DNA of 64,000 nt from a bacterium (GTDB taxonomy: Bacteria; UBA8248; JACPRG01; G963555815): assembly GCA_965218795.1 (NCBI GenBank), contig OZ244653.1:160001-224000 (forward strand). Direction: 5' to 3'. How positions within the stretch are numbered: position 1 is the stretch's first letter; each line of letters opens with the position of its first letter. Of this stretch, positions 41,276-64,000 are shown in pieces. The notes beneath the pieces are model-generated. The model was not told where the DNA came from, did not search any database, and was given only the letters and a program-made list of their open reading frames with translations. A program made the translations under genes and the position numbers.

Positions 41276-41497
41276 TCGTCTCAGTTTCGGATCAGATCGG
41301 AACCCGTCGTGAACCACAAGTAAATGTTGCTGCCATTTCGCGGCCAATGATCTGCGTAACCAGTGGACCCTTTACGCGAATCCAACCCGCCACTAAAATC
41401 GCGGGCAATGTAGGCATGAAAGAGTTACCACATAGCGCCTACGCTTCACGATGATTGTCCGATTGGCTCAGGAACTGGCTCAAAAGATGAACTCGGC

Positions 41498-42340
41498 ATG
41501 AAGGAACGAACAGCCGTCAGCGTTTTAGATACTGGCGAAGGACCGCTTGCCCCGTCCAAGGCAGTCATGGTGGTAGCCAACAAAGAGCAATCACTACGGC
41601 CTCGTGCCAAGTCGCGAAAATTACAAAGCCAGCTTGCCGATTGTGTTTCTCTTCCCGACCGTGTTCTTTTTCTCGATATCGAGACGACCGGTCTGAGCCA
41701 CTATCATGACGAGATCACCGTCATAGGATGGTCTTTCGGAGGTTGCGCAAAGACGATCGTCAAAGGGCAGGACCCTGGCCTATTGCGTGATGATGCCACT
41801 CGCGCGAAGGCTCTGGTGACTTTCAACGGGATTCGTTTCGACACCAAGTTCATCACGCGGGAATTTCCGGAGATCATTCTTCCGGAATCGCATGTTGACC
41901 TCAGGTATCTTTGCCGCCGGGTTGGTTTGACGGGCGGGCAGAAGTCAATCGAGAACGAACTGGGCATAGGTTTTCGCGATGATTCCACCAACATGGACGG
42001 TGCTGCGGCAGTCATGTTGTGGCATCGGTACCTTCGCGGTGACCCCGATGCGTTGCGAAAACTCATCCACTACAACCGGGTCGACATCGCGGCCATGGGG
42101 ACAATCCTTGACGAGGCCGTCACTCGTCTTAGAACGCAGTTGGATATCCTCATTGAAAACGTGTGTTTTCAAGACTGGTCGGCGCCGCGAGGCTGGCGGA
42201 CATTGCCCAAGGTCTCGTTGCCACCTCGCGAACTGACGGAGCGACGCTAAGAGCATTCTCCGACCTGTTCGGTGCCGTTTCTTTCTCAAGCTTCGTATCG
42301 TCGGAATCGATCTCACGGGCTCCGAGGAGCGAGCCAGCGG
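41498..42340 (+). pseudogene. RNase H-like (YprB-type) exonuclease, probably fused to DUF429; broken
   Basis: FLDIETTG, TFNGIRFD, GGQKSIE and YNRVD motifs. After the stop, another frame reads RIVGIDLTGSEERASG, cut by an IS3 remnant. Confidence 0.7.
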
Positions 42341-42577
42341 AAAGCTTTAATGGAAGGTTAAGAGATGAATCCCTGAAGGAGGACTGGTTCGTTAACCTGT
42401 CCCATACAACTCTTCCAGACCACATTCGCGCCCTCGGCTATCAAACGCCGGCGATCTGGCCGGGCAACACGGGCAGCTTCGCTCAAGCTACGTACGGGCT
42501 CCGCTCAGCTGTCCTTGAGCCTATGATCGAAACCGAAAACTCTCAAACAACATGGCCCTAAAGACGGGGAAATGCTA
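42340..42577 (+). mobile_element. IS3-family 3' remnant
   Basis: ESFNGRLRDE and ALGYQTPA, followed by an IR-like end. Confidence 0.65.
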
Positions 42578-42594
42578 ACCGACGGGGAGAGCGG

Positions 42595-45126
42595 GTGGAC
42601 TCCATTTTCGATTGGCCAGGCAAGTCCGACAACAATGACAACGAGCGCCCGGCAGTCCTGCACATGATGGATGTGGCGGCGTGCGCTGAACGACTAATCG
42701 ACGGGCACACGGCGTTCGGCGGACTCTCCGTGGCTCAGCGCCGCGCGCTGGTGATCCTGGTTGCACTCCACGATGTCGGCAAGTTGTCCGAGAGTTTCCG
42801 GGCCCTTATCCGCGCCGGCGAGAGGGGAGCACCGCCGCATTGGCAGCTCTCCGACTTTCTGTTGTGTGGGACCTTGGACGAGGTGCTGAGCAGACTCGGT
42901 GCCGATGAATGGGTGCGCACACAATTATACGCTGCCGTGGCCGGGCATCACGGACAGCCGCCGACGCGGGCAAGTGGTAATCGAACCGAGAGACGCAAGC
43001 GGCAGCATGCCGTCGGTAGCGGCAAAGAGGCGGCGCGAGAGTGGGCACTCCGACTGATGGAGGTGTTCCCGGACGCGTCGCTGGAAGGCATTACGTTCGA
43101 CGACGCCAAGGCGCTCAGCTGGGCGTTGAGCGGCCTCACTGTTGCCGCGGACTGGGTGGGCTCGAATACCGACTGGTTCCCGGTTGAGCCGGGCCTTCAC
43201 GATATTGAGGCAGCGCTTGCAGAATCGCGACGCCGCGCCGGTCGAGCGATTGAGTCAGCGGGTCTTGATCCGCCCTGTCCTGCACCGGTCGATGGCGACG
43301 CGCTCATCGGAGTGACCGAATTGCGACCGATGCAGCAGGCGGCATTAACGATTGGGCTGGAGGAAGGACCTCAACTGGCTGTTCTCGAAGACGCGACCGG
43401 CACCGGAAAGACCGAGGCAGCTCTCATCCTGGCCCATCGCATGATAGCGGCGGGCAAGGCGCGAGGGTTGTTTTTTGCGCTCCCCACCATGGCTACATCC
43501 AATGCTATGTTCGAGCGCATGAAAAAGATCGCGCCGGAATTGTTCAAGACTTGGCCGTCGATGGTGCTGACGCACAGCCGGGCGAAGCTAAGCGAAACTG
43601 TTCGGGGTTTGCGCGGAGCAAAGGCCGATGAAACCCCGGAGGCCGATGGCGCCGCTTGGCTTACGGACAACCGCCGACGATCGTTGCTGGCTACAGTGGG
43701 GGTTGGGACGGTCGATCAGGCGTTACTCGGCATCCTCCCCACCCGCTTCTCGACGCTCAGGCTGTTCGGCTTGGCGGACAAGGTGCTAATCGTCGACGAG
43801 GCCCACAGTTACGACCCCTATATGCAAGAGCAGTTGGAGACGTTGTTGAGAATGCAGGCCCAACTCGGCGGTTCGGCCATCCTGATGACTGCGACCCTGC
43901 CGTTGGAGATGCGCCGGGCGTACGTCAAAGCGTTCCGGGAGGGGATCGCGGCGAGAGCGGCAGACCTCTCGGCTATGTACTATCCCGGACTGCATCTTGT
44001 CGGTCGCGGGTTGTGCACCCAAGTCGTTGAGCCCCTGGCCGAGAGTGTTCGTACTGTCTCGGTCGTTCGGCTTCCGAGAGCGGATGATGCAATGGACCTG
44101 CTGAAGGAGGCGGCGGGAAGGGATGCGGCGTGCGTATGGGTGCGGAACGCCGTCGATGACGCCATCGAGACGGCCGAGGCATTGAGGCGGCGGGGAGTGA
44201 ATGTGGACCTGCTCCATGCCCGTTTCGCCATGGTCGACCGACTACGCCATGAACAGGCGCTGCTGGGCCGGTTTGGGAAGAATGGGTTAGGACGCGAGGG
44301 CCGGGTTCTGGTGGCGACGCAGGTGGTTGAGGCGTCGCTCGACCTCGACTTCGACGTTATGGTCTCAGATCTCGCGCCGATCGGCTCGCTGATCCAGAGA
44401 GCAGGCAGGCTTTGGCGACATATGGATGTGCGTCGCGAGGCCGTTCGTCCGTTCCCCGGCCCTATCTTGCACGTAATTTCGCCGGACCCGGAGAAGGTGG
44501 AAGGAGACGGCTGGCTTCACGACGTGCTCGATCGGGGGGCGTGGGTGTATCGACTCGACCACCAGTGGCGGACAGCGAAGGCGATGTTCGAGGCGGGCGA
44601 GATCGTCGCGCCGGACGGACTTCGCGTCTTGATTGAGACTGTACACGGCGAGGGGGAGTTACAGGTCCCCAAGTTACTCGAGGAGGCGCAGCAAAGGGCC
44701 GATGGCCAGGCAATGGCCGAGGCGGGATTGGCGCAGGTCAACGTGGTGGAAGGAGCGGCCGGTTATCTCACCGGAACCCGTGGCTCGGTCGGCAATGACG
44801 CGCTGTTTCCGACGCGCCTCGGGGAGCCGCAAGTGACGATGGTGCTGGCGCGACGCGACGGCGACCGCTTGCTTCCATGGGCTGAAGATGATGATCCGGC
44901 AGTGGCTTGGGCCTTGTCGGAGGTATCTGCCGCCCGTAAGCGATTCGAGCGCCTATTGCCGGATCAGGAAACGCCGGAAATCCGTGATGTCAAGGAAAAT
45001 TGGCCCGAATGGCGGCGTGAGGCCTACCATGTCTGCCCAGTCGACAAGGCTGGAGCGATTGGCGAAAGGATGCTATATGATTCCGAGCGAGGCCTCCATC
45101 TGTGCGCATTCCGTGACCCGTCTTGA
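42595..45126 (+). CDS. cas3: CRISPR-associated helicase/nuclease Cas3
   Basis: LHDVGK HD domain, AVAGHHG, TGTGKTE, VDEAH, ATQVVEASLDLDFD and QRAGR motifs. Confidence 0.95.
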   Translation: MDSIFDWPGKSDNNDNERPAVLHMMDVAACAERLIDGHTAFGGLSVAQRRALVILVALHDVGKLSESFRALIRAGERGAPPHWQLSDFLLCGTLDEVLSRLGADEWVRTQLYAAVAGHHGQPPTRASGNRTERRKRQHAVGSGKEAAREWALRLMEVFPDASLEGITFDDAKALSWALSGLTVAADWVGSNTDWFPVEPGLHDIEAALAESRRRAGRAIESAGLDPPCPAPVDGDALIGVTELRPMQQAALTIGLEEGPQLAVLEDATGTGKTEAALILAHRMIAAGKARGLFFALPTMATSNAMFERMKKIAPELFKTWPSMVLTHSRAKLSETVRGLRGAKADETPEADGAAWLTDNRRRSLLATVGVGTVDQALLGILPTRFSTLRLFGLADKVLIVDEAHSYDPYMQEQLETLLRMQAQLGGSAILMTATLPLEMRRAYVKAFREGIAARAADLSAMYYPGLHLVGRGLCTQVVEPLAESVRTVSVVRLPRADDAMDLLKEAAGRDAACVWVRNAVDDAIETAEALRRRGVNVDLLHARFAMVDRLRHEQALLGRFGKNGLGREGRVLVATQVVEASLDLDFDVMVSDLAPIGSLIQRAGRLWRHMDVRREAVRPFPGPILHVISPDPEKVEGDGWLHDVLDRGAWVYRLDHQWRTAKAMFEAGEIVAPDGLRVLIETVHGEGELQVPKLLEEAQQRADGQAMAEAGLAQVNVVEGAAGYLTGTRGSVGNDALFPTRLGEPQVTMVLARRDGDRLLPWAEDDDPAVAWALSEVSAARKRFERLLPDQETPEIRDVKENWPEWRREAYHVCPVDKAGAIGERMLYDSERGLHLCAFRDPS

Positions 45127-45210
45127 CGAAGCTGTTCCGCTTTTTCGTGACTTGGGACGTTGAGAATGAACCTTTAGTACTCTTCTGGCTGTCGTGCCCG
45201 GAGCCCCCGG

Positions 45211-46719
45211 ATGTCGTTGAACCTCATTACGGATTCATGGATTCCAGCCCTGCGGGGAGGGGACCGCGTCACCATCCGCCCTGATCAGATTGCCGAGTCC
45301 GGCGTCACCACTCTTGTCTGGCAGCGGGCGGATTTCAACCTCGCCTGTCTTGAACTCCTGATCGGGTTGATCTCGATGGCCGATCCGCCGAAGGACGAGG
45401 CCGACTGGTTCTCACGCCTCAACCAACCCGACGCCAAGCGACTCCGCGAGGCGCTGGCGCCGTTTGCGCCCTGCTTTGCACTCGCGGGGGACGGACCGCG
45501 CTTTCTTCAGGATCTGGAAGCCTTCGAGCAGGCGGCCAAACCTTCTGACATCAAGTTAGTGGACATGCTGTTCATCGATTCCGCCGGCGACTCGACCGCG
45601 TTAAAGAACGCCGATCTGATGGTCAGGCGTCACCGATTTGACACTCTCTCGCCCGCAGAGGCCGCAATGGCGCTCTACACGCTTCAGGCGTTCGCTCCAT
45701 CCGGCGGAGCGGGCAACCGGACTTCGATGCGCGGCGGCGGGCCGATGACGACGCTTGTCCAGCCCCTGGATGAGGAAGGCGGGCGCTTCACGTTGTGGCG
45801 GCTGGTCTTCGCTAACGTCCTTCCCAGAGCGCCACTCGCGGTGGAGGATGTGAAAGCCGCGCTGCCCTGGCTACGTCCGACGCGGACTTCGGAGAAAGAC
45901 CAGATCGTGACTCAGGAAGACGCGCACCCGCTGGAGGCGTTCTTCGGCATGCCCCGGCGGTTGAGGTTCGTATTCAGCAAGGAGGACCGGGTCGTGGGCG
46001 TGGTCCAAAGGCCCTACGGGACGAACTACGCGGCGTGGGAGCACCCCCTGACGCCATACTATCGCCAGAAGGAAGACGCCGCTGAATGGCTGCCGGCCCA
46101 CCCCAAGGCCGGACGTCTCAGCTACCGAAACTGGTTGGGGGTTACAATGGAACCCGGCCAGGAAGGAAAAGGGACTCGACGCACCGCTAGAACCGTCCGC
46201 GAGTGCCGCAACCGTTCCCGAACGCCGGACTTCGAGCTCATGGTCGGCGGTTGGACGATGGACAACATGAAACCCGTCAGTTTTTCGCTCGACAAGTACC
46301 CCGCTTTTCCGGGTCTGGGCCAGGACGGCGAGGACCGGGTTCGCCGATTCGTGGAGGCCGCGAACGCCGCTTCACGTGCCCTTCTCAAGCAGATCAAGGC
46401 CGCCTGTCGGCTTGCGGGTACGTCCTCCGATATGGTGGCCGATTCCTTCTTCGCCGAGACCGAGGAGGAATTCATGAGAACGGTTCGACGAATCATCGAT
46501 GGCACAGGGCCTGAAGTCGAGGAAGCATGGCATCGAACCCTCAAAGGTCGGACGCTTTGTATGTTTGACGAGCACGTCCTCGGCGGCCTCACCGACCGTA
46601 ACATCGCGGGGATCGAAAGTCGGATCATCGCCCGGCGCAACTTGCTCGCTACGCTGGTGAGGCAGGTTCGCAAGGAGATGGACCTGCCCCTACCCGGCAA
46701 GAAGGAGAAACAGGCATGA
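45211..46719 (+). CDS. casA: Type I-E Cas8e (Cse1/CasA)
   Basis: MSLNLITDSWIP, RFLQD, GGAGNRTSMRGGGP and HPLTPY motifs; position in the operon. Confidence 0.92.
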   Translation: MSLNLITDSWIPALRGGDRVTIRPDQIAESGVTTLVWQRADFNLACLELLIGLISMADPPKDEADWFSRLNQPDAKRLREALAPFAPCFALAGDGPRFLQDLEAFEQAAKPSDIKLVDMLFIDSAGDSTALKNADLMVRRHRFDTLSPAEAAMALYTLQAFAPSGGAGNRTSMRGGGPMTTLVQPLDEEGGRFTLWRLVFANVLPRAPLAVEDVKAALPWLRPTRTSEKDQIVTQEDAHPLEAFFGMPRRLRFVFSKEDRVVGVVQRPYGTNYAAWEHPLTPYYRQKEDAAEWLPAHPKAGRLSYRNWLGVTMEPGQEGKGTRRTARTVRECRNRSRTPDFELMVGGWTMDNMKPVSFSLDKYPAFPGLGQDGEDRVRRFVEAANAASRALLKQIKAACRLAGTSSDMVADSFFAETEEEFMRTVRRIIDGTGPEVEEAWHRTLKGRTLCMFDEHVLGGLTDRNIAGIESRIIARRNLLATLVRQVRKEMDLPLPGKKEKQA

Positions 46720-47228
46720 CTGTCGGTGGTGTGGTCATCGAATGGTGGCAGTTTTCGCTGCGTCAAGATGACGGTGGAGCGCGGGCCGCACGCGCCCGGC
46801 TGAGGCGTTGTGATTCGCCTGCTGAGGCGCTTGCGGTTTCCGAGACGCACGACCTCAACAGGCGGCTGAAGATGATCGGGAAAACCCCGACGCCCGATCA
46901 GCTGGCACTCCTCACCACGACTTTTGCCGGGCTCAGAGGCATTGACGGCGATAAGCTCGCGGCCCTGTTCGGGAAAAAGGAAAACAGGGATAGTCCGCCT
47001 ACGCTTAGCGAGCTGCGGTTCCAATCGTTGATTCGCATTCGCTCGCGCCGCGATTTGATGGCGCCGCTTCGTCGTTCCCTCGCGGTCCTTGGAGCCAACC
47101 CCGCCTGCGACGGACGAGCGTTGGCCGAAGATCTCTACTTCTGGAACGACGGGGTCCGCAATCGGTGGTGTTTTCAATACTTCGGCGCCGAGTTCGCCGT
47201 AACCAACCAAGAGGAGAGTGTTCAATAA
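46716..47228 (+). CDS. casB: Type I-E Cas11 (Cse2/CasB)
   Basis: RARLRRC and LSELRFQSL motifs; translationally coupled. Confidence 0.9.
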   Translation: MTVGGVVIEWWQFSLRQDDGGARAARARLRRCDSPAEALAVSETHDLNRRLKMIGKTPTPDQLALLTTTFAGLRGIDGDKLAALFGKKENRDSPPTLSELRFQSLIRIRSRRDLMAPLRRSLAVLGANPACDGRALAEDLYFWNDGVRNRWCFQYFGAEFAVTNQEESVQ

Positions 47229-48304
47229 TGCGCTTCGTGCAACTTCACTTCCTGACCGTCTATCCGCCCTCAAACCCCAACCGAGACGACATGGGCCGCC
47301 CGAAGACGGCGGTCTACGGGGGCGTTCATCGGCTTCGGCTGTCGTCGCAGTCATTGAAACGAGCGGCCCGCCTGTCGCCTGCCATGTCCGACGCCTTGAA
47401 GGGCAACATGGGCGAGCGCACCCAACGTCTTGGCGACGAGGTGATGAAGCATCTGCGCGAACGGGGCGCGGACGACGGGAAAGCTCGCGAAATCGCCAAA
47501 CAGGTGGCCGAGGTCTTCGGCAAGTTCGACACCGAGGCGGAAAAGAAAAACCCGGACCATATCCGTATCAGACAGTTGGCGTTCATTTCGCCCGATGAAC
47601 GTCAGGCAGCGATGGAGATGGCGGAGCGGGCCCTGGCCGGCGAATCCCTCGACAAGGAAACCGGGAACTGTAGCAAGGAAATCCTGCGTGCCGCCGACGG
47701 AGCGGTTGACCTCGCCATGTTCGGGCGCATGCTGGCCGATGCGCCGGATTTCAACCGAGAGGCTGCGGTGCAGGTTTCGCACGCCATCACGACGCACCAA
47801 GCTGAGGTGGAAGACGACTATTACACCGCCGCCGATGACCTGAAGAAACCGGCCGAGGACATGGGTGCGGGATTCGTCGGTGAGGCTGGGTTCGGGTCCG
47901 GCGTATATTACCTCTATGTCTGCGTTGATACCGTCCAGCTCGTGGAAAACCTCGCAGGTGATCGTGTGCTGGCACGAAAAGCACTGGAGGCGGTGACCGA
48001 AGCATTCGCCACCTCCAGTCCGTCCGGCAAGCGTAACAGCTACAGCCACCACACCCGCGCATCGTACATTCGTGCCGAGGCCGGAGACCAGCAACCGCGA
48101 AGTCTGGCGGCGGCGTTCTTAAACCCTGTCAAGGCGGATGACCTTCTCGGCGAATCCATCAACCGGCTCAAGAAGACGGTGGACGCTATTGACAAGGCGT
48201 ACGGCGCCTCGACCCACGAATCGGCGGAGATGGATCTGGCCAGCGGTTCCGGCGCCTTGGCCGAGATCAAGGCCTTTGTAGGCAGGCAGGTGGGCGATGC
48301 GTGA
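47228..48304 (+). CDS. cas7e: Type I-E Cas7 (Cse4/CasC)
   Basis: PSNPNRDDMGRPK, SSQSLKR, AMFGRM and EDDYYTA motifs. Confidence 0.95.
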   Translation: MRFVQLHFLTVYPPSNPNRDDMGRPKTAVYGGVHRLRLSSQSLKRAARLSPAMSDALKGNMGERTQRLGDEVMKHLRERGADDGKAREIAKQVAEVFGKFDTEAEKKNPDHIRIRQLAFISPDERQAAMEMAERALAGESLDKETGNCSKEILRAADGAVDLAMFGRMLADAPDFNREAAVQVSHAITTHQAEVEDDYYTAADDLKKPAEDMGAGFVGEAGFGSGVYYLYVCVDTVQLVENLAGDRVLARKALEAVTEAFATSSPSGKRNSYSHHTRASYIRAEAGDQQPRSLAAAFLNPVKADDLLGESINRLKKTVDAIDKAYGASTHESAEMDLASGSGALAEIKAFVGRQVGDA

Positions 48305-49031
48305 GCATTTGGTGTTCCTCCTATCCGGGCCCATGGCTTCGTTCGGCGGCTATGCCGGGCATGAACGTCGAGGGAGCGGGGTGGTCCCCATGCGTTCGGC
48401 GGTACTGGGGCTGTTGGGCGCGGCGCTCGGCATCAACCGGGCGGACGCCGAAGGTCAGGCGGCCCTTCGCGCGTATTCGGTGGCCGTGCAGCCGTTTCAA
48501 GAATCGGCACCGTTTAGGGATTACCACACGGTGCAAACGGTACCGACGGCTGGGGCCAAACGACCGCCAACCCGAAAACATGCACTAGCGCGCGTCGGAC
48601 GCGAGATCAATACGGTCATCACCATTCGCGATTACCGATGCGACGTTCTGATCGGGGTTGCACTTTGGGGCAATGGCCAGTGGACACTTGGCGATCTTTC
48701 CCTTCGCCTACGACGACCCGTGTTTCCCCTCTATCTCGGTCGTAAGTCATGCCCGTTGGCGAGCCCTCTCAACCCTGATGTGGTAATGGCGGCGGGGCCG
48801 GTCGAGGCGCTGGCTCGCATTGAAATCCCGGAGTGGCTGCGCCCCGAAAGGTGGTCCGAACAAGGGCGCGGGCGACACCCCGTCTACTCCGATCCGGTGG
48901 ACGGCCTTGACCCCCCGCCGTCGATAGAACAGGTCCCGGGCGAGCCGCTCGATCGTCAAGTCTGGACCTTCGGCGAGCGGAGCGTCTGGCACATGGGAGA
49001 CCACCGAAGCGGACCGAGGGGCGAGGCATGA
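48297..49031 (+). CDS. cas5e: Type I-E Cas5 (CasD)
   Basis: GPMASFG, SAVLGLLGAALG, DYHT and LYLGRKSC motifs. Confidence 0.95.
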   Translation: MREHLVFLLSGPMASFGGYAGHERRGSGVVPMRSAVLGLLGAALGINRADAEGQAALRAYSVAVQPFQESAPFRDYHTVQTVPTAGAKRPPTRKHALARVGREINTVITIRDYRCDVLIGVALWGNGQWTLGDLSLRLRRPVFPLYLGRKSCPLASPLNPDVVMAAGPVEALARIEIPEWLRPERWSEQGRGRHPVYSDPVDGLDPPPSIEQVPGEPLDRQVWTFGERSVWHMGDHRSGPRGEA

Positions 49032-49753
49032 CGCATTACCTGACCCGCGCTGTACTCAATCGAAAAGCGCCGGAACACGCGCTCAGGTCTTTGTTCGACC
49101 CACTGGACGCGGACGCGGCGTTCGATGCCCATCACCGGTTGATGTGGACGTTGTTCCCGGATCCCGATGCGAAGCGCGACTTCCTGTGGCGCGCTGACGA
49201 CAATGGCAAGTTCTTGATCCTCTCTGCCCGTGAACCGCAGGGCTCGCGCCTGTTCGAACCGCTTGAGTCCAAGCCCTTCGAACCGATGATGGCGGCGGGA
49301 GACCGGCTCGTGTTCATCTTGCGAGCCAACGCCACCAAGGACCGACGGTCCGGGCTGCAAGACGACGTCCCCCCAGGCACCAAGCGCAGGCCACGCAAGG
49401 ATCGCCGTGTCGATATAGTGATGCATGCGATGCGGGAACAGGGAATCAAAAGCGGGACCATCGGCGCCGATTCCCGCGTCTCCCGGCGCATGGATGTGGC
49501 CAGGGAGGCAGCGCAGGCGTGGCTCGCCGCTCAGGGTGAGCGCCGGGGTTTTTCGGTCGACGCGCTGGCGATCGAGGACTACCGAGTCTGCAAATTAAAG
49601 CGCCGGGGTGGCAAGGAGGCAACCTTCGGCGTGATTGATCTCAGGGGCCTGTTGTCCGTTCGAGACCCGAAGGCCTTCACCAGTGCGTTATTCACGGGTT
49701 TTGGCCGCTCCAAGGCCTACGGTTGCGGCCTGATGTTAGTGCGCCGCACCTGA
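49028..49753 (+). CDS. cas6e: Type I-E Cas6 (Cse3/CasE)
   Basis: HRLMWTLF, LRANAT and C-terminal GFGRSKAYGCGLM. Confidence 0.95.
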   Translation: MTHYLTRAVLNRKAPEHALRSLFDPLDADAAFDAHHRLMWTLFPDPDAKRDFLWRADDNGKFLILSAREPQGSRLFEPLESKPFEPMMAAGDRLVFILRANATKDRRSGLQDDVPPGTKRRPRKDRRVDIVMHAMREQGIKSGTIGADSRVSRRMDVAREAAQAWLAAQGERRGFSVDALAIEDYRVCKLKRRGGKEATFGVIDLRGLLSVRDPKAFTSALFTGFGRSKAYGCGLMLVRRT

Positions 49754-49768
49754 ATCGTCGTCATATCG

Positions 49769-52114
<2,346 letters not shown>

Positions 52115-52159
52115 GTCGCCTTTGAGCCCCGGGAATCTAGGGAGGAAACGACCGAGTAA

Positions 52160-52271
52160 GGAATGAGGAACCGCTAAAAGCCATGACCGAAGCTTTGAAC
52201 AAAGCTCGGAAAAAATCGGTAACCCAGGGCGATGCCGAATATGGCTTTTGAATCAATAGGTTCCAGGAAGT
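52160..52271 (+). promoter_or_regulatory. CRISPR leader with IHF-like site
   Basis: AT-richer segment. AATCAATAGGTTC (52251-52263) resembles WATCAANNNNTTR and lies just upstream of repeat 1. Confidence 0.7.
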
Positions 52272-53886
52272 ATGTTCCCCGCCCACGCGGGGATGAACCG
52301 TAATCCTCCTCAATGTGCAAGGCTATGACCTCATGTTCCCCGCCCACGCGGGGATGAACCGAAGGGTTCGGCGACGCGCCATTGAGTACCCGAATGTTCC
52401 CCGCCCACGCGGGGATGAACCGCCAGGGTAGAAACTCCGTGGCCCGCTCCGGGTATGTTCCCCGCCCACGCGGGGATGAACCGGTGCTCCGCAGACCCGA
52501 ATCGTACGTGGCGAGATGTTCCCCGCCCACGCGGGGATGAACCGGGCATGAGCAAAACCCATTTCGCCAGAGAAATATGTTCCCCGCCCACGCGGGGATG
52601 AACCGATACGGATGGGCGATTACTTGGCGGACCCATGATGTTCCCCGCCCACGCGGGGATGAACCGACGGCATGCTGAAGGAGTAAGGCGAATGACAGAT
52701 GTTCCCCGCCCACGCGGGGATGAACCGTGGCAGGTCATTGTATCCGATGAGGTTATCGAATGTTCCCCGCCCACGCGGGGATGAACCGATTGAAGGAGGT
52801 AGAAAATGCAGGGAAACGGGATGTTCCCCGCCCACGCGGGGATGAACCGACTGGGAAAATCGGACGGGTCAACGTTATTCGATGTTCCCCGCCCACGCGG
52901 GGATGAACCGACGGGAACCATCCGCCATAGACGCTGAGGATTATGTTCCCCGCCCACGCGGGGATGAACCGTTATTCAGATACGCTTTGTTTATTGCAAT
53001 CTTATGTTCCCCGCCCACGCGGGGATGAACCGTCTGGTGCCCTTTCATCCGGACCGGTGAGAAGATGTTCCCCGCCCACGCGGGGATGAACCGAATATCA
53101 ATTAGATTTAATGAATCAAGTCGTAATGTTCCCCGCCCACGCGGGGATGAACCGAAGAATATCCGTACTCACAAAGGAGGTGAACCATGTTCCCCGCCCA
53201 CGCGGGGATGAACCGACCGGCAAGATTGGAAGGGTCAACGTGATCAGATGTTCCCCGCCCACGCGGGGATGAACCGGGTTCAAGAGAAGTAGACAAAGTG
53301 CCTATGCGATGTTCCCCGCCCACGCGGGGATGAACCGTATTCGGGTCATCCAAGTTCAAGGCGGCTGCAATGTTCCCCGCCCACGCGGGGATGAACCGTC
53401 GCTTCCTGAGGCTTCCCTGAGCTTCATTAAATGTTCCCCGCCCACGCGGGGATGAACCGATTTACACCTGGTATCGTGATGCAGTTCTCCGATGTTCCCC
53501 GCCCACGCGGGGATGAACCGAAAGAAACTGCTCAATAAGAATATCCTCACTCATGTTCCCCGCCCACGCGGGGATGAACCGGAGGTCGCCCACATCCAGG
53601 CCGGCGCTGGCCGATGTTCCCCGCCCACGCGGGGATGAACCGTCCGTCCAGCGCCTTGTCGCTCCCGCACCTCGATGTTCCCCGCCCACGCGGGGATGAA
53701 CCGGAGGTGATGATGTGGCTTATCACCCGCCTCTGATGTTCCCCGCCCACGCGGGGATGAACCGACAGGAACCGGCTTGACATTCGCCCGTTTAAAATGT
53801 TCCCCGCCCACGCGGGGATGAACCGTGGCAGAAGCGATCTTTGAAGTGATCGCCCATATGTTCCCCGCCCACGTGGGGATGAACCG
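52272..53886 (+). CRISPR. Type I-E array: 27 x 29-bp repeat ATGTTCCCCGCCCACGCGGGGATGAACCG, 26 x 32-bp spacers
   Basis: Exact 61-bp period. The last repeat carries one C>T change in the stem. Confidence 0.99.
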
Positions 53887-54194
53887 ACGAGGGCCGCGAG
53901 TGAGACGGACTTGGGGGCCGAGAAGGTGAGGTCCTGCCTGGGCCGGAGATGGAAGTCGCCCTCCTTGCCCCTGCGTCCGAGCCTGCGGCCGGAGCCGTCG
54001 GGCACCTTGCCCTCCAGGACCGCCTGGAAGAGGTGGGGATCGACCGGGCCTTCGAGTCCGAGGTCCGCAGCACCCCTGCCGGCCCAGACGCTCGCCTGCC
54101 GGTGGGCTAGGTCGTCCCTGGCGTAGTAGCCGTCCTTTTCGTAATAGAAGACGCCCTGGGAGGCCGAGGCCACGGCGCCGATCGAGACGACCAC
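53887..54194 (-). pseudogene. MOBF relaxase N-terminal fragment truncated at the last CRISPR repeat
   Basis: FYYEKDGYY, WAGRG and QDLTFSAPKSVSLAALVG, then repeat sequence. Confidence 0.9.
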
Positions 54195-54195
54195 G

Positions 54196-56210
54196 TCAGA
54201 TCCGCCTCAAACGGCCCTGATGGGGTTTCCGTTGCGGCTCCGTGCTGTTCCCGCTCTTCCCCGGAAGCGAAGGGGCCGGATCGGCCGTACCCGTCTCGTC
54301 CTTTTCGGATTGCCTGTGGGGCCGCCTCGCGGCTTCTCCATGGGGTGTCGCTGAGGCCTGCCCGGATTCCCTCGCCTCGACTTCTTCCCGCGTCCCCTGT
54401 CCGGAACTCCGGGGATGCCTGAGCTTGAGCTCCCCTTGCCGGTCTCCGGTTGCGTCCGCTCCTTCCGATGCCTCCTCCCTGGGCACGAACCGTTCCGCCG
54501 CCCTGGGCCTGTGGACGTAGTCCAGCCCAATCCGGGCCACGGGCCAGGGTCCGGGGAACTTCAGGTACCCCTGCAGGTTCTCAAGCCGCATGATCTCCGA
54601 CGGCAGGGCCAGGGAGCGCATCTCCCGGCGCTGGGTCAGCGACACCCCGTCACGCAGCACGCTCGCCCCGTAGCTCAACCCGTGGGAGTATTCCTCCACC
54701 TCGCCCCGACCCAGGCTCTCGGCCGACCACCGGGCCGTCTCCTGGTCGGGCGCGGCCAGGACCACCCGGGTCCCGCACAGCCCGGAGATCGTCTCCGCCC
54801 CGTTCTTTCCGTAGAGGTCGCGCAAGGCCGAGATCACCTGGATCCCGAGCACGAAGCACCCTCCGAACTGGCGGGACTCGGCCAGGCCGGGCTGGAGGCT
54901 CGGCACCTGGTGGAGGGTGGGCAGCTCGTCCAGGACCACCCAGACCCTTCTGGCGTCGTCCTGATGGAGGGAGAGAAGGGCGTTCACCGCGATCTCCAGC
55001 CAGGTGGAGATGAGCCCCCTCAGGCTCGCGTGCTGGTCCCCCCTCGATGTCAGGAACAGGAACCCGGTCCCGTCCTCTCGGCTTACCCACTCCCGGATGG
55101 AGAAGGGCTCGCCCGTATCGGGCAGGTATTCCAATGCTCCCAGGTGGGCGGTCAGCATGGCCCGGACCGACAGGGCGGTCTTGGGGTTTTCGGGGTCCAC
55201 GATGGACTGGGCCACCGTGCCCTCCATGGCTTCGGCCAGGGATGTCAGGTCGGTCTTGAGCAAATGGTCGACCAGGACCCGGTTCCGGGTCTCCCCCTGC
55301 TTCCAGAGCCCGCCCGCGCCGTTGGCGAACAGCTGCCTGGCCGCCGTGACCCAGAAGGGGTCCACCGTGTCCTTCTGCTGGGGGATGAGGGCGGCCGCCA
55401 TCATGTCGAAGTCCCGGGGGGCGTCCCGGCCTCGTAGAAGGGAGACCAGCAGGGGGCCCGGGTATCGAGGGGGTTCATCAGCACGTCCCGGGCCGGATCG
55501 AAGAAGGAGCGGGTATAGCTCCCCATCTTGTCGTAGAGGATGCAGCGCTCGCCCCGGGCGCGGATCCGGGCGACGAGGTCGGAGATCAGGACGGTCTTGC
55601 CCGAGCCTGTGGTGCCCGAAACGATGGTGTGCTGGGTCTCGGCTCTCTTGGGCCAGGGGATCCCGGCGATGCGGGGGGAGGATCTACGCGCCTTGGGAGA
55701 CAAAGCCTCCATAAGACGCACGGACAGGGGCCGGACGCGCCTTCTCAGGTCCCGTGCCGTGGCCATCTCCGCTCCCCGGACCCTTTTGGCCCGGTCCAGG
55801 CGCCTTCCCCGGACAGAGAACAGGACCGCGCACAGGGCCATGCCCCCCGTTCCGAGCCACAGGCCGAGCCAAGCCTTTGAGTAGATCGTATGGAGCAGGC
55901 GTCTTCGGATCCTTTCGATCCTGGGGTCATTGGCGATATCCACGATCCTCAGGAGTGTCGTTTTGCCTTCCCTCCACTCGTACTTCTGGAGGGAGTGGCG
56001 GGAATACCCCAGTGCGAGCTTGGCCTGGGCGAGGGTGCCCGTTCCCACCAGGCGCCATTCATGGGCGGTGGTGGTTCGGAAGAGAGCTACGGAAGGGACC
56101 AGGACGATTGTCAGCGCGATGCCCAAAAGTCCCCACCTGACCAGCTGGCCCCACATGTGGACGTCGTGGGCCAGGGTCTGGCCGCCCCGGAGCGTGGCGT
56201 TGCCGAACAT
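54196..56210 (-). pseudogene. traD: TraD/TrwB-type type IV coupling protein, frameshifted at ~55416-55421
   Basis: GTTGSGKT, YDKMG, NPLDTR, LDELPTL and ESRQFGG motifs. AAGGAGG ribosome-binding site. Split at a C6 run. Confidence 0.88.
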
Positions 56211-56377
56211 GGCGGATCCCTCCTTGTTCCAAAGGCTAACGGCGGTTCCTGCACCGTTCCGTTGCCACGGGCCGGCAAGAGGCCGGGGCGGGCCGCAGTC
56301 CGGGTAGGGGACGCTTGGGCCGGAGAGGCCCGGTCACGTCCGAGACGCCTTGAACCTCGACCCCGGAGGAACGAACC

Positions 56378-56743
56378 ATGGCCGACCCCAATCCTTCTTG
56401 TAGCTGGCGCGCCCGGCCCTTTGTCCTGGGCGGGCTTGCCTTCGCCCTTGCCGTCACGGTCTTTGCCGTGGCCACGGGGACCGGCATCCGCCTCCTCGGA
56501 GGCGTCTGGTTCTGGGCGGCGATCTGGACCGTCCTGGCGGCCCTGGCGAGCGCCCTGCGGCAAGGGTTCCGCCATGGGGACTGGTCCGCCTTCAGGGGGT
56601 ACGACCTCACGGAAGACAACGGCGACCGGTTCGACTGGGCGACAAAGACCGGCCGCTACGCCTGGCTCCGCGACGCCGAGGACGGGGATCTCCACGACGA
56701 GGATCCCCTTCGCGGTCATGGCCCGAGCACCTGGTCTTCGTAG
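56378..56743 (+). CDS. Hypothetical membrane protein
   Basis: GGAGG ribosome-binding site, two hydrophobic helices, acidic tail. Confidence 0.55.
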   Translation: MADPNPSCSWRARPFVLGGLAFALAVTVFAVATGTGIRLLGGVWFWAAIWTVLAALASALRQGFRHGDWSAFRGYDLTEDNGDRFDWATKTGRYAWLRDAEDGDLHDEDPLRGHGPSTWSS

Positions 56744-57376
56744 AAGGGGCCGTCGCGGGTGCTCGTCCAGGGGCAGGTCGGAGCGGGTGCCGGGCGTTGT
56801 CATGGGAAGGAACATAAGGGGAAGGTTCGTGCTCGCCCACAGGTATCGATAGTGTATGGCCTACAGTTGGTTGACATTCCTGCGCACGTCCGCAATGGAA
56901 TGCGCGGGGGTGCGGCAAAAAACCGGGGATTACGGCAGGTGGAAGGGAAAAGATGGGTTCAGAGAGGAACAGGGACGAGAGGGAGGCGATCAGGCGGGAC
57001 CCGGTCCGGCTCAGGCTGATCTCCGCCAACCCGGACGACGCCCCGTACTCATGCTTCGCCCAGGACGTCGACGTCGTCGGCAAGGTGCTCTGAACTTTGC
57101 GTCAGGTGAGAGAAAAAACGCCGCAGGGCGTTCCCGTCCCCCTCCCTGGCCACTCAAGTCAAGCGACCGGGCGATGCAAACCGTTTTGTATCCGGTGGTC
57201 AGCCCGCGCGGTTCCTGTCGCGGGCCGTGCACGGCATCGGTCAGGGCGCTGTATCGCTTGGGCGAAGAGACGAGCCGGAGCCCGGCGAGGCTACCGCCCG
57301 CGTCGCGCACCAGCGCCGCGAACGCCGGCACGCCGGGCGCTCCGGTCCCGCGGGGCGCGGAGGGAACGCCCCGCCG

Positions 57377-60300
57377 TCACCAGCGGATCGTGCCGCGCAG
57401 CATCAAGCCGTGCTCGGGCGCGTCGTCGTTGGCCGGCTCGCTGCGCGTGCCTTCGAGGCTGAACGTCACGTCCGGCGCCACCAGCCAGCGCGCGCCCGTG
57501 CGCCATGACCGCCCGCCGCCGTCGGCCAGCGAGAGCCCCGCATAGGGCGTCACCAGCCCGAGGCCGCGCGGCACGCCCAGACCGTAGCCGAGCTCGGCCT
57601 CCAGACGGCGCTCCGCCTCGAACGCTTCCTCACGCACCAGCCCCGCCGCGTCGCGCGCCGACCACAGACGCTCCACGCCGCTCGACGGCGTCCCCCACAC
57701 CGGCGCCAGCGTCAGCGAGAGGCCCCGCCCCGAGGCGCCTGGGTCGAACCGCACCGAGCCGCCCGCGCCCCACTCCTCGTAAGACCCGTCCTCGTGCGCG
57801 ATGAGCGCGCGAACGCTCGCCTCCACCGTCAGGCCCGAGCCCGCGTCGGCGAAGCGGATCCGCCCGCCGACCTCGATTCCGGTCCCCGTCTCCGCGTCAC
57901 CGCCGTCGTGGCGCAGGCCCACCTCCAGGCCCGGCGTCAGCGCCACGCCCTCGCCCAGCGCGAACGCCCGCCCGGCCTCCAGCACCAGCCGCAGCCGGCT
58001 CGCATCGGCCTTCGTGGCCACCGTGTTCGCCGCCTTCTCCGACTCCATCCGCACCCAGAACGCGTCGCCGCGAAGCGCCAGGTCGATCCCGCCGGTCTCG
58101 CCCGCCTCCAGCACCGCGCCCCGCGCACCCGCGGCGCCGAGTCGCATCGAGAGGTCGGTGCGCACGGACGAGTTGCCCCGGACCGTCATGTCGCCCGTGC
58201 CGTAGCCCAGGAGGCCCCAGGCCGAGAGCCGATCGCTCAGCGTCACCCGCACGTAGGGGTTCACGCTCGTGAGCGTGCTCTCGATCTTGCCCGAATCCAC
58301 GTCCGGCTGGTCGAAGGCGCCCTTGCCCCTGCTCACCGAGACCGCCACGCCCGCGAGCCAGCGCTCCCATTGGGCGTCGGCACCCAGGATCCCGGTCGTC
58401 ACCTCGCCGTCCAGGCGCACCTTGCCCTTGTCGGCCGGCGCCTTGGCGTCAAAGCCGCCCACCGTCACCCGGCCCCAGGCCGCGAAGCCCGGTCCCCCGT
58501 CCTCGCCGCTCCCGGCCGTAAGGTGGAACGAGCTGCCGAGCAGAAGCTCGCGCCCGGTCAGGGTCCGCGACGTGGCGCCGGCCGTGTCCAGGTCCGCCCG
58601 GGAGCCGGACCGCGCCTCAACGTCTTCCGCGCCCGGGGCCCCGGCAAGCGCCCGCCGGGCGTCGACGGTCCCGGCCGACAGGTCGATGCTCCGACCGCCC
58701 AGCGTCACCCGCGAGCCCTGGGGCGGACCTGACAGGCGTCCGGACACCGCGTCCACCACCTGGCCCGCCACCGTGCGCCCGAAGCGCGACAGCCACATCT
58801 TCTGCAACGGATCGGAGTTCTCGATGGCGCCCGTCGCGACCCCGTCGGCGATCACCGCCCCCGAGGCGCTCGTGAGCCGGAGCGTGAAGGTCTCCTCGCC
58901 CTCGTCCACCGCGTCGTCCAGCACCGGCACCGAGACCGTCTTCGCCGTCTCGCCCGGATCGAAGCTGAGCGCGCCGCCGCTGCGCGTATAGTCCTCGCCC
59001 GCGGTCGCCGTCCCGTCGGCGGTCGCATAGGCCACCGCCACCGTCACCGATGCCGCCCGGCTCAGCGTCACCGCGAAGTCGATGGTCTCGTCCGCGCCTT
59101 CCCTGGCCCGCGCGTCCGCCACCGACACCGCCACAGGACCCCGCACCGTCGTCGAGATGGTGTTCGACAGCGCGCGGCCGTCCGACGTGCAGACCGCCGC
59201 CGGGGTCCGGCAGGCCGCCCCGGCCGCGAGCGTCACCGTCACGTCCGCCAGCGAGTCCGGCTCGACCGTCACCTGCCACAGGTCCCGGCGCCGGTCCACC
59301 CGGCTGGCCGACGTCGCCCGGCCCCCGGCCACCGCCACCACGTCCTCGCGCAACCGCCGGCCGTTCATCCACCCGATCCGCTCGCTGAACGCGATCCTGA
59401 ACGTGAACGCGCTCTCCCCGTCATGCTCCGCCGGCACGTCCTCGAACGACGCCGTCAGCGGCGCCTCCTCCGGGTCCGTGTTCGACTCCCGCGCCTCGTC
59501 GTTCCGAATCGTGCCCACCGCCTCGTAGTTCTTGACGCTCGCGCCGGTGACATTGCTCAGCAGCAGCTTGAACGTCTCCCCGCCGTCTTCATCCGCGTCG
59601 TCCCGGATCGGCACCTCCACCGTCTTCTCGTACTCGCCCCGGGCAAACGTCAGCGTGCCGCGCGTCTCCGTGTAGTCGGATCCCGCCTCCGCCGTGACAT
59701 CCTTCGTCCGGTAGGCAAACGTCACGCCTTCCTCACCCGGAACCCCGTCCAGTTTCACCACGAAGTTCAGGGTCGCGTCCTCGCCCTCCATCGCCTCGGC
59801 ACCGGCCACCGACAGCGCCGCGCGCTGCGCGTACTGCACCGCGCCCAGGTGACCCAGCTCCGCATCGTAGCCCCGCTCGTTGCGGACCGTGGCGCCGTTC
59901 GAGGCCAGCGTGTCGGCCACCACCTCCACCGCGCCCACCCGGCCGTCGCCGGCCGTGACCTCGTACTCGAACACCAGCGTGTTCTTTCCCGAACCGCTCA
60001 CGTACGACGCCCTGCGCGGTTGCTCGCGGTCCTCCCGGTCGCCCAGCAGCAGATCGATTGTCGGGGTGCCCCCGGTATCGTCCACCACCACCTTGTCCCG
60101 GTTCTCCGGCTCGTCGGGGGGCGTATACGGCACCGGACCCGAGAACCGGACCTTCACCCGCACCTTCTCGCCCGCCGTCCACGCGCGCCCGCTTCTGTCC
60201 ACGGTGACCTGCATCACCCGCGTGTTCGTGTACCTCGAGGCGCCGTCCCCGCCCTCCAGCGTGCGGATCGTCGCGCCCCACAGCAGCAAGCCGTCGTCCG

Positions 60301-63238
60301 CCGCCCACGCGCCCCGCGCGCCGTCCTCGGCCGCGCCCACCGTGTAGGCGAACCTCAGCGTGTCCGTCTCCGAGCCGCCCACATACGGCGCCAGCGGCGT
60401 CGACAGGGATTGGCCGTACCCCGGGCGCGCGTCGGATCTGAACGCCACCAACATGTACGGGCCCGACGGCCGGCAGGTCCCGTCGGCGTTGTAGGTCCAG
60501 CATTCCGACTTCTCCACCACCACCGGCTTGTCATAGCGCACCTCGACCACGACACGCTCCCCGGTGCTCCATACCCCGTCCGCGACCGGGCCGCTCACCA
60601 CCGTCACGCTGCGGATGGTCGCCGGCTCGAACGGCGAGACGTCGTCGTCGATGATCGTGCCCGTCGCCCCCGGGTCTCCAATCTGTGAGTTCGACGACAG
60701 GTTCGACAGCCGCACCGTGAAGGTCTCGTTCTCCTCGTCGGTGGCGTCGTCGGCCGTCGCGACGTTGAACGTTCCTGTCCTCGACCCCGCCGCGACCGTC
60801 ACCGTCCCTCTCGTGGTCGACCCGAGATCCGCCGCCGCCGCCGTGTCGCCGCGTTCGATCGAGGCCGTCCAGTCCGCCGTCACGTCCGTCCCGGTCGTCT
60901 TCGAGAGCTGCACCGTGAAGGTCATGTCCTCGCCCTCCTCGGCCTGCGCGTCCCACACGCTCACCAAAGTCAGCTTCGGCACCGTGACCGTGTAGGTGGC
61001 CGTCCCCTGGTTGTAGTCGGCGCTCGACGCCGCGGTGGCGGTAATCACGCACTCGCCCACTCCCGCGAGCGTCAGGGCGCCCGTGGACGGGTCCACCGTG
61101 CACACACCCTCGGGCGCCGCCGAGTAGCTCAAGGTGGTCTGCACCCCGGTAGGGGGGGTGACGGTCGGAGCGGTGTCGCCATGGGTCACCGAGGCGGGGC
61201 TGTAGGCGAACCCCGTCAGCGTCTGGTCCCCCTTGGCCACCGCCGGGAAGGTGATGTCGACCGTGGCGGTGTTGCCGGCGGTGTCGGTCACCGTCACCGT
61301 GGCGGCGGCGGTGTTCGCGTCGGCCGTGTCCGGCGTCCCGTCGATGACCCCGGTGCCGGTGTCGATGTCCAGCCCCGGCGGCAGGCCCGTGGCGCCGTAG
61401 GAGGCGATGTCGGCGTCCGCGGTGCTCGGCGTCATGGCGCCGACGGCCACCCCCACCTGCAGCGACGAGGGCGCCGTGTAGGTCGCCGAAGGCGCCGCCA
61501 GGTCCACCGCGAGAGTGCGCGTCACGTCGCTCGGCGCCGTGTACCCGGTCTTGCTCGCGCTCACCGTCACCGCCACGCTCGTGCCGGTGAGGTAGGCCGC
61601 GTTCGCCGCCGCGTCCACCGACCAGGCGCCGGCGGCGGTCGAGGTCGCCGTCAGCTCCGTCGTGCCCACCGTCACGGTGACACTCACACCCCCCTGCGAG
61701 CCGGTGGCGCCCGAGATCGCGAACCCCGCCGCCTTCTCGGCGATGTTCACCGTGTCGTCACCGGCGATGGTGTCGAGGATCAGCGCCAGCGCCCCGGCCG
61801 CCTGCACCGTGACGGTGAACGCCGCGGTGGCCTCGTTGTAGTTGGCGGCGCCTGCCGCGGTGGCGGTGATGTTGCAGGCGCCCACCTCCACCAGGGTCAG
61901 GGCGCCCGTGGACGGGTCCACCGTGCACACCGTGGCCGGCGTGGCCGAGTACGCCAGGGTGGTCTGCACCCCGCCCGGCGCCGTCACCGCCGGGACGGTG
62001 TCGCCATAGGTCACCGTGGCGGGGCTGTAGGCGAACCCCGTCAGCGTCTGGTCCCCCTTGGCCACCGCCGGGAAGGTGATGTCGACCGTGGCGGTGTTGC
62101 CGGCGGTGTCGGTCACCGTCACCGTGGCGGCGGCGGTGTTCGCGTCGGCCGTGTCCGGCGTCCCGTCGATGACCCCGGTGCCGGTGTCGATGTCCAGCCC
62201 CGGCGGCAGGCCCGTGGCGCCGTAGGAGGCGATGTCGGCGTCCGCGGTGCTCGGCGTCATGGCGCCGACGGCCACCCCCACCTGCAGCGACGAGGGCGCC
62301 GTGTAGGTCGCCGAAGGCGCCGCCAGGTCCACCGCGAGAGTGCGCGTCACGTCGCTCGGCGCCGTGTACCCGGTCTTGCTCGCGCTCACCGTCACCGCCA
62401 CGCTCGTGCCGGTGAGGTAGGCCGCGTTCGCCGCCGCGTCCACCGACCAGGCGCCGGCGGCGGTCGAGGTCGCCGTCAGCTCCGTCGTGCCCACCGTCAC
62501 GGTGACACTCACACCCCCCTGCGAGCCGGTGGCGCCCGAGATCGCGAACCCCGCCGCCTTCTCGGCGATGTTCACCGTGTCGTCACCGGCGATCGCGTCG
62601 AGGGTCAGCGCCAGCGCCCCGGCCGCCTGCACCGTGACGGTGAACGCCGCGGTGGCCTCGTTGTAGTTGGCGGCGCCTGCCGCGGTGGCGGTGATGTTGC
62701 AGGCGCCCACCTCCACCAGGGTCAGGGCGCCCGTGGACGGGTCCACCGTGCACACCGTGGCCGGCGTGGCCGAGTACGCCAGGGTGGTCTGCACCCCGCC
62801 CGGCGCCGTCACCGCCGGGACGGTGTCGCCATAGGTCACCGTGGCGGGGCTGTAGGCGAACCCCGTCAGCGTCTGGTCCCCCTTGGCCACCGCCGGGAAG
62901 GTGATGTCGACCGTGGCGGTGTTGCCGGCGGTGTCGGTCACCGTCACCGTGGCGGCGGCGGTGTTCGCGTCGGCCGTGTCCGGCGTCCCGTCGATGACCC
63001 CGGTGCCGGTGTCGATGTCCAGCCCCGGCGGCAGGCCCGTGGCGCCGTAGGAGGCGATGTCGGCGTCCGCGGTGCTCGGCGTCATGGCGCCGACGGCCAC
63101 CCCCACCTGCAGCGACGAGGGCGCCGTGTAGGTCGCCGAAGGCGCCGCCAGGTCCACCGCGAGAGTGCGCGTCACGTCGCTCGGCGCCGTGTACCCGGTC
63201 TTGCTCGCGCTCACCGTCACCGCCACGCTCGTGCCGGT
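57377..63238 (-). CDS. Giant autotransporter adhesin, 3' part (Ig-like repeats, Calx-beta domains, beta-barrel)
   Basis: [17 protein letters not shown] Ig repeats; several Calx-beta motifs ([23 protein letters not shown]); WLSRFGRT; C-terminal ...LRGTIRW. Confidence 0.88.
61193..63238 (-). repeat. 825-bp near-identical tandem repeat, about 2.5 copies
   Basis: The GTGCCGGT anchor recurs at 61581, 62406 and 63231. Only a few substitutions separate the copies. Confidence 0.92.
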
Positions 63239-64000
63239 ATGGTGCCCTTGGCCGCGGTCAATTCACTCCCCACCCGGGCCGTGCCCGATATCGCCGGCTC
63301 ACCCGTCGCGGCGTCGTTCACCGCCGTGACGTCGATCGTCATGGTGTAGGCCGAGGCGCTCTCATCCGTGCCGTCGCTCACCTTGAAGCCGAAACTGGCG
63401 TAGTCGTCGCCGTTGGCGTTCGCCGGCGGGGTGTAGACGAGCTCGTCCGCATCGATGTCGGCCCTGGAAACCACCTGGTCCGCCGTCACCGCCGAGCCAT
63501 CGAGCATCAGGCTGCCCTTGCCGGACGCCGGCAGGGACGTAATCTCCACGCTCGCGAGCCCATCGCCCGCGTCGGTGTCGGAGAAGTTGAAGTCGCCGAC
63601 ACCGAAGGTGTAGGCCGTGTCCTCGTTCGTCGTGACCGTGCTGTTCAAGGCCGTGGGAGCGGTGTTGGCGGCCCTGACCGTTCCGCTGATTCTCATTCGA
63701 ACTATCACCGCAGAAGGGTCGCCCCAATTTGCTCCATTGTCCGAGGTAGATCGAGCGACGTTGCCGATACTCCAGTCCGGCGCGCTTTCGGAATCCTCTG
63801 CGGGCGAGAGTGTTCCTTTTGAAGAGAATCGCCCCACAGGTGCACGTATGTAGACGAAGTAATTGGTTTGTGCGGCCAGTACCGAATTCGCTGGCGCTGT
63901 GAAAGTGTTGAGGCCGGTGCTGACGGTTGTCGGGTTCAAAGCATATACTTCAGAGTCCGGAATGCCGTTCGAATCACTGTAGATCGCTACCGCTACGGAA
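63217..64000 (-). CDS. 5' part of the same adhesin (cadherin-like domain); out of frame and running off the window
   Basis: Open to the window edge. [34 protein letters not shown] and [13 protein letters not shown] motifs. Confidence 0.8.

Follow-up and report, generated by a model that had tools for sequence, protein, structure and literature searches.

What does it mean when a CRISPR array ends, with no base in between, inside a gene of the element that carries it? The question is raised by a window of 64,000 nucleotides from a bacterial genome (positions 160001-224000 of contig C1 of genome G000, a single contig of 5,174,045 bp), in which the last repeat of a type I-E CRISPR array abuts the antisense strand of a truncated MOBF relaxase gene. 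The joint could be read as a source of guide RNA, as the work of the CRISPR machinery itself, or as the mark of DNA loss. We read it as a scar and not a device. More specifically, we attach about an even chance to the proposal that it is a recombination scar left by a short-homology deletion that immobilised a CRISPR-carrying mobile element.

The array (52272-53886, plus strand) consists of 27 direct repeats of 29 nt at a 61-nt period, separated by 26 spacers of 32 nt, and its repeat forms the 7-bp hairpin of a palindromic 29-nt type I-E repeat. All repeats but the last are identical (26 of 27), and the last (53858-53886) carries a single C-to-T change. When the whole genome was searched for the repeat at up to three mismatches, 27 of 27 matches fell within this array, with no second array or solitary repeat anywhere in G000. 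The terminal repeat is full length and its 3' end is intact; the substitution converts a G-C pair of the stem to G-U, and the hairpin is retained (-12.0 versus -13.9 kcal/mol for an internal repeat). From base 53887 on, with no gap, the plus strand carries in antisense the N-terminal part of a relaxase gene: on the minus strand, the frame that starts at 54194 reads TrwC-like sequence as far as ...SVSLAALVG and then enters the array. A preliminary description of this DNA had already noted the gapless joint, on which the sequence, the frame reading and the bridging contigs considered below agree, and had placed the cut in the relaxase reading frame right after its APKSVSLAALVG motif, which is where the minus-strand frame puts it too.

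What is left of the gene (53887-54194, minus strand, codons 1-102) shows 80-84% nucleotide identity to the six closest copies in G000, and matches Pfam TrwC (PF08751) with an E-value of 6e-18 over only positions 2-91 of the 286-position profile. It retains an N-terminal TrwC relaxase domain, with partial profile coverage only; the complete domain and the C-terminal helicase are missing, as the fragment stops at codon 102, whereas intact copies span 956-1023 aa. We take the metal-binding histidine motif of the TrwC relaxase to lie beyond profile position 91. When the joint is aligned with eight homologous copies from the same genome, homology begins at the last three bases of the repeat. The bases just before the joint are CCG in six of these homologues and CCC in the other two; hence, the shared microhomology is 3 nt (CCG) at most, matching the overlap of about 3 bp in the preliminary description. 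The zone that holds the breakpoint is accordingly 53884-53886, the CCG common to the repeat end and intact relaxase genes. The further expectation of that description, namely that intact relatives would show a repeat-like CCG at the position of the protospacer adjacent motif (PAM), holds for the six homologues with CCG and fails for the two with CCC.

Repeats are classic places for misjoins, and an assembly artefact at the repeat, a concern already voiced in the preliminary description, has to be weighed before any biological reading. We consider it scarcely credible. The genome is one 5.17-Mb contig, and two Logan contigs bridge 53886/53887 with 0 differences: that of run X1 spans 53802-54139 (338 nt), that of run X2 spans 53802-53919 (118 nt), and both contain the unique last spacer. 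These two runs belong to one study and may represent the source sample. The relaxase stub is also covered in part by runs X5 and X6, which come from other studies; none of their pieces listed bridges the joint. A relative described below shows the same architecture independently. Given the bridging contigs and the closed assembly, the junction is real, and a misjoin is very unlikely.

The DNA on either side of the junction establishes what kind of element was broken. Directly upstream of the relaxase start lies the gene that the preliminary description had called traD, which indeed encodes a type IV coupling protein of the TrwB/TraD type (54196-56210, minus strand). It is split into two open reading frames (ORFs), 54196-55404 and 55401-56210, corresponding to profile positions 3-87 and 93-386, by a frameshift near 55420; the cause is a 2-nt insertion in a C-run at 55415-55425 that six other copies in G000 lack. 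The element continues on the minus strand through 56211-64000, including a gene for a 1949-aa surface protein with Calx-beta and He_PIG domains (57377-63226; Pfam). The stretch 54473-63238 is 97.7% identical to positions 2874998-2866235 of the same genome (copy c2875), and the homology runs past the window end to about 69764, with 96-98% identity to that copy from 54473 onward. This near-identity indicates that the coupling protein and the 1949-aa protein belong to one element with a near-twin in G000. In the twin (2860257-2868494), the stretch matching 60979-63238 recurs in steps of about 825 nt, pointing to more internal repeats there than in the Calx-beta/He_PIG gene of the window.

On the other side of the cas genes stands a conserved block of the same element family (34696-41268), parts of which recur at 82-95% identity in at least eight other places in G000, and including a YAcAr/SLOG-domain gene (39298-40308; Pfam YAcAr). 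Three copies (c520, c2681 and c2875) have an intact relaxase gene 4.8-12.9 kb upstream of the block, with the same relative orientation as in the window. Because the left block is multicopy beside intact relaxases and the right side is near-identical to another copy, the cas operon and the array evidently occupy a slot between relaxase and multicopy block, inside a MOBF element resembling an integrative and conjugative element (ICE). The term "ICE-like" is assigned here from the relaxase, the coupling protein and the comparison of copies. The preliminary description had spoken of mobile-element DNA joined to the array, which is correct as to the origin of that DNA but understates the relationship, since the CRISPR-Cas locus appears to be itself cargo of that element. 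The relaxase and the type IV coupling protein are both present and both broken in the window, and both are intact in sister copies. No tRNA gene was found within the window. The relaxase copies of G000 comprise five long open frames (956-1023 aa), one frame split in two, and four shorter fragments, including 53887-54194, whose ends differ; to judge from these copies, truncation of relaxase genes is common in this genome. A second N-terminal TrwC fragment occurs in the window at 34174-34629 (plus strand; Pfam 7e-31, profile positions 2-120). It is of a more distant type (70-76% nucleotide identity), and is directed toward the cas region, with some 70 nt between its end and the multicopy block.

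From these observations, a history can be proposed in which a complete type I-E locus rode as cargo in a MOBF (TrwC/TrwB) ICE-like element, in a variable slot between the relaxase gene and the downstream block. A deletion would then have joined the leader-distal end of a repeat to the interior of the relaxase gene, removing any older spacers and trailer, the relaxase from codon 103 on, and whatever DNA intervened. The joint would have formed by short-homology illegitimate recombination or by replication slippage on the shared CCG. Lacking the helicase and the remainder of its relaxase domain, and with a frameshift in its coupling-protein gene as well, the element could no longer nick its own oriT, and the CRISPR-Cas locus would have been fixed in place. 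Transcription reading through the array would yield antisense RNA over the relaxase stub and no working crRNA. Deletion is the most likely origin of the joint and short-homology joining the most likely chemistry. No Ku homologue was found in the genome (98.9% complete), which fits microhomology joining rather than nonhomologous end joining, and no reciprocal deletion product was found, as there is no other repeat in G000. The frequency of truncated relaxase genes in this genome fits a deletion as well, and so do the lack of spacers that match element copies and of AAG-like bases at the PAM positions of the source sites. Three other routes were considered and rejected. A TrwC-type nick at a hairpin-plus-8-nt site is ruled out because the joined DNA is the interior of the relaxase ORF, at two codons when the relative discussed next is included, and not an oriT; integration at an att site within the repeat is excluded by the same fact, as joints at two different relaxase codons do not define an att site; and an adjacent deletion mediated by an insertion sequence (IS) is ruled out by the absence of any IS at the joint.

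The comparison set of 40 relatives plus G000 contains 18 genomes with matches to some part of 53700-56300, mostly copies of the element. Among the 40 relatives, an orthologous CRISPR-Cas locus occurs only in G004, a member of the same family but of another genus. It is colinear with the window from 34722 to 50947 at 79-92.5% identity, comprising the block and the cas operon, and its leader is about 93% similar to that of G000. The G004 array comprises 44 repeats and 43 spacers, and 0 of the 26 x 43 spacer pairs fall within a Hamming distance of 12 of each other. The last repeat (L025 16806-16834) is full length and perfect, and is followed, after 0-1 unexplained base, by an antisense relaxase gene entered at about codon 19. 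Although this DNA otherwise resembles the G000-type homologues, it has a different base, G, directly after the repeat. Beyond the stub lies a coupling-protein gene with a truncated 5' end, and an intact pair of relaxase and coupling-protein genes stands 12 kb past the joint in the same orientation. On this comparison, the two genomes share the left side of the insertion, and their right-hand joints differ, each standing at an exact repeat end. In the coupling-protein tree, the G000 remnant groups with two copies from its own genome, c2875 and c2924 (support 100/99 and 100/100), and not with the G004 remnant; likewise, over the 343 nt next to the relaxase start (54138-54480), identity is 88% with c2875 as against 80% with the G004 remnant. 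However, with the right side of the window 96-98% identical to c2875, recent exchange between copies could mask orthology of the two stubs. G004 also contains a second, decayed type I-E locus (L031 8047-10421, contig 7), made up of a helicase-like fragment, cas6e, cas1, cas2, a leader and a single repeat, as well as a further solitary repeat-like match (G004:C7:1025399-1025432).

A wider survey places these two joints among related loci. A Cas2 scan, using one genome per species, yielded 80 loci, and only that of G004 has a coupling-protein or relaxase match after its array. At many of 55 array ends surveyed, judged by eye, the array finishes in a complete repeat beyond which nothing resembles a repeat; thus, an intact terminal repeat is not unusual in itself. 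A metagenome scan gave another 80 loci, among them a contig present twice (L120 and L121) with 89% identity in Cas2, 83% nucleotide identity in the cas operon, and a 43-repeat array. In L121 (10434-16829), the array is followed by a 240-nt trailer, a 233-aa ORF, a nearly full TrwC relaxase gene on the same strand, and block-like sequence. An orphan leader and a lone repeat (L200 14749-14777) occur in G035, a genome from another family, along with a trailer 80% identical to that of L121, the same ORF, and a full TrwC relaxase gene; leader and repeat lie about 1 kb upstream of the small ORF and the relaxase gene, and no cas genes were found within 14.7 kb upstream. By this comparison, linkage to MOBF relaxase genes recurs in this CRISPR clade, which also includes collapsed arrays. 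An identity of 15 nt between the 32 nt that follow the terminal repeat in G000 (the pseudo-spacer) and the DNA after the array of L058 was dismissed as chance in GC-rich DNA, the region there being without a relaxase.

Several of these observations weigh against a simple deletion. Random breakpoints should rarely land on the exact end of a repeat, and G004, which was not selected for this feature, also breaks within 0-1 nt of a repeat end; by a rough estimate assuming a uniform breakpoint over the 61-nt unit, the chance of such a second joint is about 5%. In a GC-rich genome, a microhomology of 3 bases carries little evidential weight. None of the 79 other loci of the species-level Cas2 scan has the undeleted state, and the sole metagenome contig that bears a relaxase (L121) shows a different arrangement rather than that state; the deletion itself is what we infer. 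The second repeat-end joint in G004 thus keeps alive a different kind of explanation, in which recombination is provoked at the boundary between repeat and spacer, either by a Cas1-Cas2 half-site reaction or nick or by way of a self-derived spacer that was tolerated, and has on at least two occasions joined an element-borne array to the relaxase gene of its own carrier. We regard this as unlikely. The two models that it comprises hold together only a minor share of the probability, and what these and the short-homology deletion leave over goes to other or mixed histories. No positive evidence for either of them was found.

The first of these models begins with a 32-bp spacer acquired from the relaxase gene, and tolerated thanks to a non-permissive PAM position (CCG). 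If it recombined with its protospacer, in direct orientation a few kb downstream, everything between the two would be deleted, and a repeat plus "spacer" running into the gene would remain. Such an event gives an exact repeat-end joint by construction and would cover both G000 and G004; the orientation in the window is that needed for a deletion, and a tolerated self-spacer is expected to have a non-functional PAM, with CCG or CCC indeed found at that position. Against this, stretches of 32 bp seldom recombine, the base next to the G004 repeat (G) is unlike that of the G000-type homologues, and neither an intermediate state nor a repeat after a matching spacer occurs in any relative examined. 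The spacers themselves offer no help. No element copy, whether in G000 or in G004, has a match among the spacers of the two arrays. No protospacer was found in the G000 genome for its 26 spacers and the pseudo-spacer, the matches being to the repeats apart from one partial match, nor for the spacer sets of both genomes against G000 plus the G004 loci, nor for both arrays against the whole G004 genome. Searches with 2,631 spacers from 71 related arrays against G000 and all loci, with the G000 spacers against plasmids and phages, and with those of a related 141-repeat array (L038) against plasmids and phages, were equally without a protospacer, and none of these searches gave a PAM for the system. 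The partial match belongs to spacer 22 (53582-53613), 24 of whose 25 aligned bases match G000 3205566-3205590; it is the only spacer with any match outside the array. The lack of spacers matching element copies, along with the CCG or CCC at the PAM position, leaves a spacer-guided or PAM-processed origin without positive support. Taken singly, recombination through a self-derived spacer is thus quite improbable.

The second model relies on the Cas1-Cas2 integrase, which attacks a repeat at its leader-distal boundary. An aborted or half-site reaction at that boundary would ligate a long end or leave a nick that turns into a break; repair would join the repeat end to the relaxase gene, and the array would collapse to that repeat and refill. 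Several features are compatible with such a course: the joint lies exactly at the attacked site in two genomes, neither terminal repeat is shortened or damaged at its 3' end, the reading frames of cas1 and cas2 are open, the absence of common spacers despite leaders about 93% alike fits collapse and refilling, and collapsed single-repeat loci exist in the clade (L031 of G004; G035). Yet the lack of shared spacers and the intact last repeats are both ordinary, as the many surveyed array ends with a full last repeat illustrate, and neither source site, in G000 or in G004, bears a trace of an AAG-type PAM. Moreover, we know of no in vivo joining of kb-long DNA by Cas1-Cas2, and a full-text search of open-access papers found none. 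A break or joint made by Cas1-Cas2 is therefore, in our estimate, also quite improbable, and a little less probable still. The preliminary description had left open a Cas1-Cas2 event or a microhomology deletion; no positive trace of a Cas1-Cas2 or spacer origin was found, and the sole point in favour of one is the second repeat-end joint in G004.

A further proposal concerns function rather than origin. In it, Cas6e cuts the terminal repeat, and the downstream RNA (53887-53918 and beyond) loads Cascade and polices related relaxase genes. The terminal repeat keeps its hairpin, so Cas6e could cut it and would leave a predicted 8-nt 5' handle; no terminator-like site follows on the plus strand; and the resident copy c2875 differs from the 32-nt stretch at one position only. 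The earlier suggestion that cleavage frees an extra crRNA is nonetheless weak. A type I-E crRNA carries at its 3' end the hairpin of the repeat downstream, to which Cas6e stays bound, and with no repeat after 53886 in the window or the genome, there would be neither a 3' hairpin handle nor a Cas6e cap. The targets are also ill suited: the eight homologues differ from the 32 nt at 1, 5, 6, 7, 7, 7, 10 and 6 positions, all eight have CCG (six) or CCC (two) at the PAM position, and the single mismatch to c2875 is at position 3, within the seed. Finally, five long open relaxase frames coexist with the locus. A working extra guide is accordingly very improbable.

The type I-E cas operon upstream of the array (42595-50969, plus strand) is complete, with cas3, cse1, cse2, cas7, cas5, cas6e, cas1 and cas2 all open and matched by NCBIfam type I-E models in 8 of 8 cases (e.g., cas1_ECOLI at 8e-106 and casC at 2e-94), and it is 92.5% identical to the G004 locus over 11,990 nt. 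The leader (52112-52271), the 160 nt preceding the first repeat, is intact and aligns without gaps and with few differences to that of G004. Between the two, an IS630-family insertion (50948-52111, plus strand; DDE_3, transpos_IS630 at 4e-86) parts cas2 from the leader; G004 lacks it and is colinear across the site. The inserted element (1,164 bp) has TA on both sides and sits after codon 92 of cas2, where it replaces the Cas2 tail. Directly upstream of cas3 is an RNase_H_2 gene (PF13482; 41498-42250, plus strand; Pfam E-value 2.5e-30) for which NCBIfam gave no match, and a relative of it stands inverted upstream of cas3 in L122. Farther out, just left of the 34174-34629 relaxase fragment, a gene for a 980-aa UvrD-type helicase with a C-terminal topoisomerase zinc ribbon (29625-33814, minus strand) lies beside one for a DUF4238 protein; from their domains and adjacency, the two may form a defence gene pair.

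Parallels exist for parts of this picture. Spacer-protospacer recombination has reportedly been shown, by Varble et al. in 2019, for phages and staphylococcal type II and type III loci, and type I systems are said, after work by Vercoe et al. in 2013 and Csorgo et al. in 2020, to cause large deletions upon chromosomal self-targeting. The former resembles the present case in a repeat plus target sequence running into target DNA, but here there is no evidence of a spacer; the latter resembles it in DNA loss beside a targeted mobile element and in microhomology joints, but here a self-targeting spacer was not found, and the bases at the PAM position are non-permissive. CRISPR-Cas systems on conjugative plasmids, along with orphan and eroded arrays, have been described (Pinilla-Redondo et al., NAR 2022, PMC9071438). 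The window agrees with such systems on conjugative plasmids and ICEs in having a complete system as accessory cargo, and eroded or orphan arrays on related elements (here G035 and L031), and differs from them in that the array end cuts the carrier's relaxase and no spacer was found against plasmids or other elements. The stability of terminal repeats and the collapse and refilling of arrays have been reviewed (PMC8047081). Here too, spacers are replaced beside a lasting boundary between repeat and trailer, G000 and G004 have the leader and the repeat in common but not a single spacer, and single-repeat loci occur in the clade; the terminal repeats reviewed, however, are usually degenerate at the 3' end, whereas those of G000 and G004 are full length and abut a broken gene. 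Lastly, prophages integrate into the CRISPR repeats of the Streptococcus pyogenes type II-A locus (bioRxiv 10.1101/2020.10.09.333658). That case shares with ours the direct joining of mobile-element DNA to a repeat, with an effect on the array, but integration there is integrase-mediated at an att core inside the repeat, whereas here the joined DNA is the interior of a relaxase ORF, at two codons. A full-text search of open-access papers, with supplements outside its reach, found no published array end that truncates its carrier's relaxase.

More generally, CRISPR-Cas on conjugative elements is known; there is little documentation of its chromosomal fixation or of the loss of the trailer end. 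In this window, the relaxase of the carrier was disabled by a break exactly at the array end, and a second such break occurs in a relative; this second, different repeat-end joint is the single point that merits follow-up. If the locus records plain decay, it offers a clean example of mobile-element erosion around a retained defence locus, and a warning against reading the sequence after a last repeat as guide RNA. If, on the other hand, a repeat-boundary mechanism were at work, these joints would be natural evidence that the adaptation machinery or stored spacers remodel the DNA adjacent to arrays, and the CRISPR machinery would trim and immobilise its own carrier, providing a route to the domestication of mobile CRISPR-Cas loci.

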